Below are positions 47,265 through 62,276 of a DNA stretch of 64,000 bases, in pieces. The stretch's first letter is position 1. The number at the start of each line of letters is the position of its first letter. The stretch is from contig OZ059898.1 of NCBI GenBank assembly GCA_964057225.1, forward strand, positions 12,400,001-12,464,000. Direction: 5' to 3'. A model generated the notes under the pieces. It was given only the letters and a program-made list of their open reading frames with translations. It was not told where the DNA came from and did not search any database. Source of the DNA: Auanema rhodensis (Eukaryota; Animalia; Nematoda). Both the position numbers and the translations under genes were made by a program.

Positions 47265-47615
47265 TTACCAACCATTGGCATCCCAGCACTTCATGGTGTG
47301 GTTGAATTCTTGGACAGTCATACAACACCTGGAATGAGATCAAGTTGAAACTTGAAGTAAGAACTTGAAGCTTTACATGTAGTAGTTGTTGTTACAGTTG
47401 TGCATCTGAATATCAAGACATCTCTTATAACACTTGTCAGCACACCAGGTTTCTCTCCAGCTGAAAAGCTCAAAGTAAGGTTAGAAACTCAGAAGATACA
47501 ACGTTTGAGGGATGGAAGCTTCACAGTTAGATCCAGCAAGAGTTCCGTGACAGTAGTCAACGCAGGAAGCATAAGCAGCAGCAATGCAGACAGCAAGAAC
47601 AATGAGGAGTTTCAT
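47265..47615 (-). CDS. Secreted 10-Cys peptide, 86 aa, 3 exons (copy 1)
   Basis: MKLLIVLAVCIAAAYA-SCVDYCHGTLAGSNCEASIPQTWRETWCADKCYKRCLDIQMHNCNNNYYMCCMTVQEFNHTMKCWDANGW* after removing 42-nt and 48-nt GT-AG introns. AATAAA lies ~40 bp after the stop. Confidence 0.9.
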
Positions 47616-47695
47616 TCTGAAAGTTTTAATTTCAAGTTGGAAAGTTGAAAAGTTGAAAAGCTTGAAGCTGGAGAATCGTTGGATGAACTGGATGT

Positions 47696-47860
47696 AGTGT
47701 TAAAGGAAGATTCACCTTATAAAGAAATTCAAAATTTAATTTCTCAATGGGACCCCAAATCCGAAAAACTAAAAGTTGTTGTTGGAAACAGCATGAGATT
47801 AAGCTCCCACTGATGCTTATCCAAGTATATAAAACCTCTGATAGCTCAGTTTGAATCATC
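47696..47860. promoter_or_regulatory. Putative bidirectional promoter (palindrome spacer, repeated in all six palindromes)
   Basis: Lies between divergent ATGs. TATATAAAA at 47826-47834 (+) and TTTATAAG at 47723-47716 (-) are each ~25-35 bp before the arm start. Confidence 0.7.
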
Positions 47861-47940
47861 ACATCCAGTTCATCCAACGATTCTCCAGCTTCAAGCTTTT
47901 CAACTTTTCAACTTTCCAACTTCAAATTGAAACTTTTAGA

Positions 47941-48291
47941 ATGAAACTCCTCATCGTTCTTGCTGTCTGCATTGCTGCTGCTTATGCTTCCTGCGTTGAC
48001 TATTGTCACGGAACTCTTGCTGGATCTAACTGTGAAGCTTCCATCCCTCAAACGTTGTATCTTCTGAGTTTCTAACCTTACTTTGAGCTTTTCAGCTGGA
48101 GAGAAACCTGGTGTGCTGACAAGTGTTATAAGAGATGTCTTGATATTCAGATGCACAACTGTAACAACAACTACTACATGTAAAGCTTCAAGTTCTTACT
48201 TCAAGTTTCAACTTGATCTCATTCCAGGTGCTGTATGACTGTCCAAGAATTCAACCACACCATGAAGTGCTGGGATGCCAATGGTTGGTAA
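47941..48291 (+). CDS. Secreted 10-Cys peptide, 86 aa (copy 2)
   Basis: Exons 47941-48053, 48096-48179 and 48228-48291; same protein as copy 1. Confidence 0.9.
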
Positions 48292-49143
48292 GAAAGAAGA
48301 AACAATGATATTCATGTTGTAACATCAATTTGAATAAAGATTTCTTTACCTATAATAAGAATAGTTAAGAATATAGTTAGTATAGTTAACTGGATACAAC
48401 CGCTTACACGTCTTTTCAAACTTCGAATAAAAATGATTTTCATTGTATCCTACGTGGAAAATCTAGCCACTTTGCATATTTTTTCGAAATATTGTCAACC
48501 ATCTGAATCCTGAATCATTGAAATTCTCAGAAATTATTAAAAGAAACAAAAACTATTTACCAACGAAATCTATGTTGTGAAGGTTGGGTATGAAGAAGCG
48601 CATTAATTATATTTGAAGTAGTATGCTGGTTAATCGCCTACTATTGGCCAATCAAAAATCCACCAATAGCAGCCTGCATACTACAGTAATACCATAATTG
48701 ATAATTTATTAACAGAGAGCTAAGTTATATGTTTTTCTAGAACTTTTTTTTCTAAAAATAACATAATAATATAATAATATAATTAACTTAATATATTCAT
48801 TTCAGTTTCAAAAATAATTTGAAATTACTAAGGTTCACAGCTTAAACTACATACAAGGTAAGAACTATTTAATATGAATCACCCATACATTGTTTGTAAA
48901 AGATCTTACACAAGAGATAACATTTCAGACAAAGTGCTCATATTACCATATTAGAATGTATATCAACATCGGAACAACTTCTGAAAAGCATACATAAGCT
49001 TATTATCAGTTGAATTTTTGTTTCTGATCTTCTTCTTAAGTTTTAGTTAAAACTACATAATGTTTTTCATACTTGTGTCTTTCTTTGGGTTTTTGTTCAT
49101 CGGTTTATGTTTTAATTGTTTCATTACATTTAAAATTAGAAAA

Positions 49144-59488: not shown

Positions 59489-60711
59489 ATGTTTTACGTA
59501 TTTTCTCTATATCTATGTGCTGCAATATCATTTATGTGCTTAGTATTAACATTCTTTTGCGTTATATGGCATTCTCCTTCACATATGGGCAAAGAATATA
59601 GATGTTATTTATGTTTGCAATGCTTTTGGTAAGTTTAATATTTTGTTGAATTTCAAAAAAAAATTTAAATTTTCAGCGGATTATTCTTCTCTTTTATTCT
59701 ATCTTGTGGCGCTGTTCCTGTACTTGTAGCTCCATGTATTGGAGGATATCCAACAGGTTTTCTGAAATACTCAGGCCTTTCAAGCCTCACATTACTGAAG
59801 CTTCATTTGAAGCTGATATATTGTAAGTTAGCCGTTAAAATAAAAAAAGTTATTGCAATTTTCTTGAAGTTTATGGAGGAGTGATTATCTTAATGTTTTA
59901 TCTTCGTTATCAAGCTATACTTATAAGGCCACATCGTGTACTTAAATATATAATGTATAGTCAAGTAGCTGTAAAACATTTTGTGATTCCAAATGTTCTA
60001 TTTTTCACAACTAAACTTGAACATGTTAAAGAAGTCAAAATGGAATGCTTACGGGTATGAAGCTGAATTCTTTTTAAATCTTCTATTGAACTATGACTTT
60101 TCAGATATATCCGGGTGATCCGGAAGATATTTGGAATGAACAAACGATTGTTTTATCATTTACTAAATCAGGAATAGCAATGCTTATATCATTTTTCATA
60201 ACAGCATTCGTTGTGTTTTTATTCGTTCTCGATATTTGTACATTAGGAACACTTACGTGGAGACGCTTCAGAAAAATACGAGCAAGCATGTCGAAACAAA
60301 CTTCAGCAACACATAAGCTATTTCTAAAAATCAATTTTATTCAGGTTTTATCTATTTTTGTTTGTTTCATAAATAATATATTTTTCATAATTAAGGCTTT
60401 TGTTCTAATATTTACTACAAATATAGTTCTATTTTTCCTTTTACTCCCATATTTGGAAGTTCAAATAACTAAAGGTAAATTAAATACTAATTTAATAATA
60501 ATACAAATTATTTTTTATTAATTTTTCAGAAATTCAACATGTTCTACTTGCACTTGTTTTAATTTATTTTATGTTTGGACCAATATTAACGTTATATACT
60601 GTACCATCATATAGAATAGCTACTCTTAATCTATTAACATTATATAATCCTAAACATATAACAAAGAGATCAATAGTCAATCCAAATTCTTCAAGAATCA
60701 GCATTAAATAG
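59489..60711 (+). CDS. Serpentine (7TM) chemoreceptor-like protein, copy B (paralog of 45080-46389)
   Basis: CVIWHSPSHMGKEYRCYLCLQ, FYLRYQ, MSKQTSATHKLF...IQ and TVPSYR, with the same exon layout as copy A. Confidence 0.75.
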
Positions 60712-61249
60712 AATATTATAATTATAATTAAATAAATTATTAAATATAAGTAAGTAATACGTATAACTATTGTGAAGAATATTTCACTTATGCATATTCC
60801 ATGACTAACAACGAGTTTCAGTTCATAGGTCTTAATCTAAGAAACTTGTATGAATTAAATATATAGATATAGATATTTGAACATATAGATTTTTTTCAAT
60901 TTTATACTTATGATAAGACTATTAGTTTATTACACTAGCTATTGATTTATGTATTTTATTCTCTAATAAATATTTAAAAAACAAAAAAGTTTTATGATTA
61001 TTATGAAGAACTTAAAAACTTGAAAAAACAAAAATAATATTCTAATGTATGATGTTGTATTTAGATAATATTTGAACTTATCAAAACAACGTCATACACG
61101 TGAATGACATTTATTTTGAAATGATAACGACGTGTAAGCGGTTGTATCCAGTTAACTATTCTAACTATATTCTTAACTATTCTTATTATAGGTAAAGAAA
61201 TCTTTATTCAAATTGATGTTACAACATGAATATCATTGTTTCTTCTTTC

Positions 61250-61600
61250 TTACCAACCATTGGCATCCCAGCACTTCATGGTGTGGTTGAATTCTTGGAC
61301 AGTCATACAGCACCTGGAATGAGATCAAGTTGGTACTTGAAGTCAAAACTTGAAGCCTTACATGTAGTAGTTGTTGTTACAGTTGTGCATCTGAATATCA
61401 AGACATCTCTTATAACACTTGTCAGCACACCAGGTTTCTCTCCAGCTGAAAAGCTCAAAGTAAGGTTAGAAACTCAGAAGATACAACGTTTGAGGGATGG
61501 AAGCTTCACAGTTAGATCCAGCAAGAGTTCCGTGACAATAGTCAACGCAGGAAGCATATGCAGCAGCAATGCAGACAGCAAGAACGATGAGGAGTTTCAT
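61250..61600 (-). CDS. Secreted 10-Cys peptide (copy 11)
   Basis: Same protein, with a few extra substitutions in intron 2. Confidence 0.9.
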
Positions 61601-61925
61601 TCTGAAAGTTTCAATTTGAAGTTGGAAAGTTGAAAAGTTGAAAAGCTTGAGGCTGGAAACGTGTTGAATGAACTGGATGTGATGATTCAAACTGAGCTAT
61701 CAGAGGTCTTATATACTTGGATAAGCATCAGTGGGAGCTTAATCTCATGCTGTTTCCAACAACAACTTTTAGTTTTTCGGATTTGGGGTCCCATTGAGAA
61801 ATTAAATTTTAAATTTCTTTATAAGGTGAATCTTCCTTTAACACTACATCCTGTTCATCCAACGATTCTCCAGCTTCAAGCTTTTCAACTTTTCAACTTT
61901 CCAACTTCAAATTGAAACTTTCAGA

Positions 61926-62276
61926 ATGAAACTCCTCATCGTTCTTGCTGTCTGCATTGCTGCTGCATATGCTTCCTGCGTTGACTATTGTCACGGAACT
62001 CTTGCTGGATCTAACTGTGAAGCTTCCATCCCTCAAACGTTGTATCTTCTGAGTTTCTAACCTTACTTTGAGCTTTTCAGCTGGAGAGAAACCTGGTGTG
62101 CTGACAAGTGTTATAAGAGATGTCTTGATATTCAGATGCACAACTGTAACAACAACTACTACATGTAAAGCTTCAAGTTCTTACTTCAAGTTTCAACTTG
62201 ATCTCATTCCAGGTGCTGTATGACTGTCCAAGAATTCAACCACACCATGAAGTGCTGGGATGCCAATGGTTGGTAA
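61926..62276 (+). CDS. Secreted 10-Cys peptide (copy 12)
   Basis: Same 3-exon structure and protein. Confidence 0.9.

Follow-up and report, generated by a model that had tools for sequence, protein, structure and literature searches.

Six small palindromes in a 64,000-nt stretch of the nematode Auanema rhodensis (contig OZ059898.1, positions 12,400,001 to 12,464,000; the whole stretch is called the window below) each carry two copies of a gene for one small peptide, one copy in either arm. The question raised by this locus is whether the arms are kept alike by copying, and from which arm the copied sequence comes. An earlier note on this DNA had taken the partner arm of the same palindrome to be the donor. 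The comparisons described here make it probable that the arms are mosaics produced by non-allelic gene conversion, both within and between the pairs of a 31-copy family. Judged on these comparisons, copying from the partner arm is real and is one route among several; copying between palindromes appears at least as evident. Coordinates are window positions, except those prefixed C6, which refer to the contig that carries the whole family.

When the window was compared with itself by BLAST, palindromes P1-P6, of ~1.25 kb each, were found between 47144 and 62365. Their arms are 520-552 bp long (0.52-0.81 kb with the outer extension of P1 described below) and 95.5-98.9% alike, the spacer is of 165 bp, and each arm holds one gene that is transcribed outward, away from the spacer. 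P1-P4 form a tandem array with a period of 2,418 bp; P5 and P6 are inverted relative to them, as judged by the orientation of the spacer. The arms were labelled a and b by spacer orientation, not as left and right, and P2a and P2b, between which there are 13 differences, were used as the reference a and b haplotypes. In P1 (47144..48412), arm a (47144-47695) and arm b (47861-48412) enclose the 165-bp spacer. The gene of P1a (47265..47615, minus strand) has three exons and introns of 42 and 48 nt, and encodes 86 amino acids; that of P1b lies at 47941..48291 on the plus strand. The genes of P2 (49562..50830) are at 50033-49683 (minus) and 50359-50709 (plus), those of P3 (51980..53248), the core of which equals the P2 core, at 52451-52101 (minus) and 52777-53127 (plus), and those of P4 (54400..55666) at 54871-54521 (minus) and 55197-55547 (plus). 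For P5 (56912..58164), the minus-strand gene (57367-57017) belongs to arm b and the plus-strand gene (57693-58043) to arm a, and likewise for P6 (61126..62365; 61600-61250 minus, arm b; 61926-62276 plus, arm a).

Searching the genome at the DNA and protein levels recovered 31 copies of the gene. All of them lie in the interval 12.13-13.68 Mb of contig C6, and they make up 15 head-to-head pairs and a single copy, T1, with a decayed partner. All 31 genes are intact, and they encode eight distinct proteins. The pairs fall into three spacer classes, S1 (P1-P6, Q1, and Q2; the window class), S2 (R2, R4, and R5), and S3 (R1, R3, R6, and R7), the seven R pairs being referred to as the older pairs. 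Spacer lengths are ~165, 240, and 282 bp across the pairs, and within a class the spacers are better conserved than the arms. Whole pairs have also been duplicated, as seen in the 2,418-bp unit of P1-P4, in R4/R5 (~6 kb), and in the shared flank of P6 and Q2.

One tree that explains all sites, the outcome named in the earlier note as speaking against conversion, was excluded by the four-gamete test together with simulations. Among the 12 window arms, 53 of 91 informative site pairs failed the test (a fraction of 0.58), as did 281 of 561 (0.50) among the 14 older arms. In 500 simulations without recombination on the fitted tree, the incompatible fraction had a mean of 0.026 and a maximum of 0.267 for the window, and a mean of 0.146 and a maximum of 0.323 for the older arms; the observed fraction was reached in 0 of 500 simulations in either case. 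Nearby sites were more compatible than under permuted order (P = 1e-4 for the window, 5e-5 for S1, and 6e-4 for the older arms). A tree of the 31 arms, which is a poor summary for recombining sequences, placed the 16 window-class arms together (support 99) and joined R3a with R3b (96) and R7a with R7b (93).

The right arms of P1 and P4 had been described as carrying left-arm states, and the states themselves were confirmed. P4b has the a-arm state at six consecutive sites (55146, 55179, 55185, 55193, 55211, and 55259; minimal tract 55146..55259, plus strand), and P1b has it at six diagnostic sites in 47874..47890 (plus strand). The donors, in contrast, could not be placed inside P4 or inside P1. 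The perfect match of P4b, of 347 bp, is equal for P2a, P3a, and P4a, and for both switched arms any a arm of the array could be the donor. The switches are one-sided, six sites being changed in each of P1b and P4b and none in P1a or P4a, and the linkers of the P1-P4 units differ at only 2-3 of 1,149 bases. Hence, independent mutation and simple crossover are inadequate for P1b and P4b, and we infer that conversion explains these switches. Five of the six P1b sites are also carried by Q1b and Q2b, and P1b could in part keep an older state. P1b groups with P2b and P3b by a change at -4, and no single tree reconciles that grouping with the sharing by Q1b and Q2b.

Two other variants were said to be private to one palindrome and present on both of its arms. 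Alignment of the 12 window arms recovered both of them: GCT>GCA on the two P6 arms (61559 and 61967, +41 from the ATG), and a T>C change in intron 2 on the two P5 arms (57100 and 57960), found elsewhere in the window only on the left arm of P6. Their privacy was lost when all 30 paired arms were considered, of which 3 carry GCA (P6a, P6b, and Q2a, the last 330 kb away) and 19 the intron-2 C. This cautions against taking a variant as private from one window when it may be widespread among the copies. The earlier comparison was of left with right arms and overlooked the inversion of P5 and P6. The right arm of P6 (arm a) has the b state at five further sites that went unmentioned (61908, 61914, 61940, 61988, and 62216). 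Against the reference haplotypes, P5a has the b state at one site and P5b the a state at three, one of the counted a-state sites, at -4, being the change common only to P1b-P3b and so no true switch.

We then asked for which palindromes the partner arm is indicated as the donor. For P5, the partner appears to be the best donor, as its arms share a perfect tract of 367 bp, compared with 252 and 228 bp with opposite-type arms of other palindromes. The P6 arms share 293 bp; P6b matches best with its partner (293 versus 248 bp), whereas for P6a the matches to P3b (361 bp) and Q2b (390 bp) exceed the one to its own partner. Outside the window, the clearest case of partner copying is R3. Over the 619 bases running outward from the ATG, its arms have 2 mismatches, a longer stretch than R3 shares with any other arm. 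R3a itself has 15 differences from R6a and 14 from R7a in ~480 sites, although the three spacers are separated by 0-1 of 282 bases. Differences between partners numbered 4 in R3, against 8-15 between like arms of sister palindromes, and 9 in R7, against 11-15; in P1-P6, an arm is mostly closer to the like arm of a sister palindrome than to its partner. In both R7 arms there is a 5′ segment that matches the S1 a type exactly and is not present in full in R3 and R6, and R7 reads as an import from the window class followed by copying to the partner. Of the proposal of conversion inside palindromes, conversion as such was upheld, with copying from the partner best indicated for P5 and for part of P6; it did not extend to the donors of P1 and P4, and tracts are also found between palindromes.

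It could be argued from P5, R3, and R7 that arm-to-arm conversion inside palindromes dominates, and that what different palindromes share was inherited by duplication. GCA in Q2a could have been inherited in that way, since P6 and Q2 share a 1.2-kb flank. In the older arms, 5 of 15 two-copy alleles are shared by the two arms of a single pair, where 1.15 would be expected, although three of them come from R1 and the sites are not independent. We consider this explanation improbable because of the tracts between pairs. All tracts that passed global correction in a GENECONV-like permutation test were between palindromes (P1b/P2b, P4b/P6a, P2b/Q2b, R6b/R7a, R2a/R6a, and R5b/R1a). Perfect tracts between pairs were found for R6b/R7a (323 bp), R2a/R7b (284 bp), and R1b/P5a (214 bp); long perfect tracts link arms of different spacer classes at loci 0.5-1.2 Mb apart, and tract exchange between palindromes spans up to ~1.2 Mb. 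S1 arms differ from the older arms at 33-56 of ~480 sites. Of the fixed differences, 13 fall in the 76 columns upstream of the ATG and none from exon 1 through exon 3, and the window and older classes have 8 polymorphic columns in common, 4 of them in intron 2. Moreover, the eight window-class pairs taken together showed no partner preference, as detailed below.

Exchange appears to have touched the spacers as well. The outer flank of P6 (62366..63548) is common to Q2, a palindrome outside the window (1131 identities, 21 mismatches, 34 gap columns). In Q2, this flank adjoins the opposite arm type, the spacer having the reverse orientation with respect to the flank; the sequence of the Q2 spacer is the one found in Q1 and is 7 bases off that of P6. 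The flip would be explained either by a crossover between the arms or by conversion across the spacer from Q1.

Several results weigh against the reading of the arms as mosaics of conversion within and between pairs, and these come from the tests of partner preference, from the arms and spacers, and from the sequencing runs. Partner preference was tested by permutation of partners, by distance and by tract score, P3 being dropped in some of the tests on account of its P2-like core. In the window, the preference was weak (24/720 and 6/120 by distance; 96/720 and 18/120 by tract score). When Q1 and Q2 were added (all eight S1 pairs), P was 0.45-0.46 by distance and 0.20 by tract score, and when Q2 was labelled by its flank, P was 0.68 and 0.47, respectively. 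The permutation tests were many, and their P values are uncorrected for that number. The best same-palindrome tract in the GENECONV-like test, P5a/P5b, did not pass (global P 0.078). The 13 arm differences are all retained in P2 and P3, which conversion has thus not made uniform, and spacers that are themselves open to conversion, as in Q2, are weaker markers of descent. The sequencing runs were examined as assembled contigs, which drop rare forms. In four runs, no contig bridged the P1b and P4b junctions, such gaps proving nothing. At 55146, the P2-type letter alone was present in runs X2 and X9, which does not prove the other form absent.

The P values of 0.20-0.68 for the window class with Q1 and Q2, together with the fact that the top corrected tracts are all between palindromes, would suit a process of conversion and unequal exchange among all copies in which the partner is not special, the partner cases being due to chance or nearness. 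We regard this as distinctly improbable in view of the older pairs. Partner preference in the seven older pairs (P 0.004-0.049) was 20/5040 by distance and 34/5040 by tract score when pooled, and 2/144 and 7/144 within spacer class; for all classes together the values were 0.024 and 0.043. The 619 bp of R3 with two mismatches also exceed any other match of R3.

Another possibility is that the variants shared in the window are an artefact of assembly or polishing, reads of one arm having corrected the other. The arms are 95-99% alike and longer than short reads, and the lack of P1b and P4b junctions in the contigs of the four runs agrees with such an origin, which we nevertheless hold to be very improbable. 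Each switch is a clean, unbroken tract confined to one copy, whereas the 13 differences persist in P2 and P3. The same mosaic is present in the 14 older arms, which can be distinguished more readily, with as many as 36 differing sites. Contigs of run X1 fit separate spacer-arm junction types, and one of them has two letters marking Q2b. A contig of run X3 breaks off just one base short of the P4b marker, as expected if the assembly branched there, which is a weak hint. Spliced transcripts in run X13 match the gene. Splice sites, spacer, and distinct types of arm junction are thus borne out by the run contigs; a palindromic contig can be placed at two positions, so that the GCA site is uncountable per arm.

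Conversion within and between pairs might proceed as follows. A break or a stalled fork in one arm would be repaired from any near-identical arm, the copied tracts ranging from tens of bases to several hundred. At a distance of 165-300 bp, the partner arm would be a favoured template and not the sole one; whole pairs (P1-P4, R4/R5, P6/Q2) are also duplicated as units. The layout would be old and its arms kept young by exchange, probably along with selection for an abundant identical peptide from a shared two-way promoter. That conversion is ongoing, as the earlier note had it, may be inferred from how nearly identical the tandem units P1-P4 are, these being from one genome and not a population. 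More tentatively, with somewhat less than even confidence, we suggest that palindromes could act as two-step relays, in which a tract imported from up to 1.2 Mb away is then copied to the partner, as both R7 arms suggest. If so, the relay would hold a 31-copy family of ten-cysteine secreted peptides near invariant while neighbouring chemoreceptors drift to 42-59% identity, and the locus would allow rates of partner and long-range conversion to be compared in one free-living nematode genome.

The age of the head-to-head layout can be judged from T1 (C6:13240900-13242200), a divergent intact member with a decayed head-to-head partner. T1 is 78% identical to the other family genes, and 71-74% identical in the introns. 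Its first exon is ~95% identical to the family and the rest ~72%, which may reflect partial conversion. Upstream, T1 aligns with the S2 spacer over ~175 bases, with a score that none of 300 base shuffles attained; both sequences are AT-rich. Beyond this spacer-like stretch lies an inverted, deleted remnant of the partner arm. Because T1 keeps an S2-type spacer and a decayed partner, while the present S2 partner arms are 97-99% alike, the layout likely predates the T1 split and the arms are younger. The most divergent paired copy is R1a (C6:12948374-12948835), with several amino-acid changes, some common to T1; these were possibly imported from a T1-like donor.

All 12 window copies, read with the introns given above, encode the same 86-aa protein with 11 cysteines, one of which sits in a hydrophobic N-terminus that, judged by eye, looks like a signal peptide. 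The GT..AG introns of 42 and 48 nt were spliced out in contigs of run X13, which bears the same species label as the best-matching DNA run and the RNA nature of which is a guess. A loose contig end just before the ATG in this run fits the nematode spliced leader SL1. Homology of the peptide was searched with single exon frames of 20-44 aa only. The first-exon frame had no match among proteins of 78-2000 aa, the three exon frames gave nothing above the cut-off in Pfam, and the ESM Atlas returned no usable match for the peptide. A literature search, which covered only a minority of subscription papers, yielded nothing on this peptide family. The family may be secreted and perhaps undescribed. 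On the b side of the S1, S2, and T1 spacers there is a short common motif followed by a TATA-like box (for example, at window 47786-47835), a candidate promoter element of the family.

Two other origins were considered. The shared 3′ tail of the arms as a transposon end is not favoured by its 29 matches, all on the same contig and 27 of them at family members, in a search that skips very common words; the two gene-less copies of the tail are at window 63690-63900 and in a duplicate at C6:12720454. An amplification chimera as the source of the palindromes was rejected, since the arms differ by 1-5%, the spacers are unique and of three classes, and all 31 genes are intact.

In three Caenorhabditis species, divergent inverted paralog pairs have arms that are closer within than between species, for which conversion was proposed; such pairs duplicate as units, also in tandem, the spacer of F44E5.4/.5 is 126 bp, and three F42F12 gene pairs cluster on one chromosome (PMC1803023). 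The conversion process is thus already known from Caenorhabditis. Like those pairs, the palindromes described here consist of head-to-head paralogs with palindromic arms and a short unique spacer, six in the window and 15 genome-wide, and they share the unit duplication and a layout older than the likeness of the arms, shown here within one genome only (PMC1803023). That study (PMC1803023) compared species and whole-arm identities, whereas the present locus offers 15 pairs in one genome, tract-level mosaics, indications that pairs exchange sequence, and a decayed pair by which the layout can be dated. The likeness to mammalian sex-chromosome palindromes that had been drawn earlier extends to the proposed mechanism, not to arm length and identity. 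Primate sex-chromosome palindromes have arms of 8-140 kb that are >99% alike, the criteria for X palindromes being >8 kb and >99%, against arms here of 0.5-0.8 kb that are 95-99% alike with many donors outside the palindrome (PMC8327919). Arms kept alike by conversion and genes in the arms are features common to the present palindromes and to primate X/Y palindromes, and in the primate palindromes spacer inversions are attributed to recombination of the arms (PMC8327919). The Caenorhabditis divergent inverted gene pairs are the closer precedent. What the locus offers is a compact and well-replicated instance of concerted evolution in head-to-head pairs outside Caenorhabditis, with 15 pairs, three spacer classes, and one decayed pair, and at this locus partner-arm copying can be told apart from copying between pairs, a distinction out of reach when single palindromes are studied. 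Concerted evolution is reportedly named in the title of a paper by Thomas from 2006 (Genetics 172:2269). The F42F12 pairs are presumably nspc genes. NSPC are clustered, small, highly similar C. elegans proteins with signal peptides and without known relatives outside Caenorhabditis (PMC12406010). The present peptides resemble those described there in being clustered, small, similar, and putatively secreted (PMC12406010); single exon frames of 20-44 aa gave no match that would link them to NSPC by sequence.

Chemoreceptor genes of the Srh type lie beside many palindromes, often just upstream in gene order. A serpentine receptor gene of this type is found between P5 and P6 (59479..60711, ends approximate, plus strand; Pfam PF10318, E 3e-7), and a paralog at 45070-46368. 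In the stretches examined, Srh genes were located up to 4 kb from seven pairs, and they are 42-59% identical to the Srh exon frame of the window. If both were duplicated together, which is an assumption, the peptide genes would have been held together far more tightly than their Srh neighbours.

The linker of the 2,418-bp tandem unit (48413..49561, plus strand) is repeated at 50831-51979 and 53249-54399. Each linker of P1-P4 has an open reading frame of 77 aa (49144-49377, and from 51562 and 53982 onward) that is 64% identical to C. briggsae CBG26688, belongs to no Pfam family, and spread along with the amplification of P1-P4. The left arm of P1 is extended outward by 46884..47143, where the 260 bp located beyond the right arms of P1-P3 recur in inverted form, 259/260 identical to the right flanks of P1 and P2. 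The inverted BLAST match at P1 accordingly runs from 46884-47695 to 48672-47861. To the right of the window there is a second tandem array (C6:12465632-12479380) with a period of ~2,600 bp and at least six units that are >99% alike; ~665 bp per unit are common to the P1-P4 linker, and the array is without a palindrome. Window 63541-64000 has an inverted duplicate at C6:12720354-12720814, 99.8% identical and 256 kb apart, which carries the 3′ tail of the arms without a gene. Exon frames of osm-1/IFT172 (37459-37803, minus), a Pumilio-family gene (26379-26999, plus), and a prolyl oligopeptidase (20565-20957, minus) are also present in the window and could assist in assigning C6 to a Nigon element. 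One gene near the palindromes is most similar to a sequence of Auanema (75%), followed by Caenorhabditis and Mesorhabditis, in keeping with a rhabditid host. The osm-1 gene is X-linked in C. elegans, which gives a lead, and only a lead, to sex linkage of contig C6. Tandem repeats of ~178 bp and 200 bp occur near family members (C6:12119736-12122199 and 12944000-12945605).

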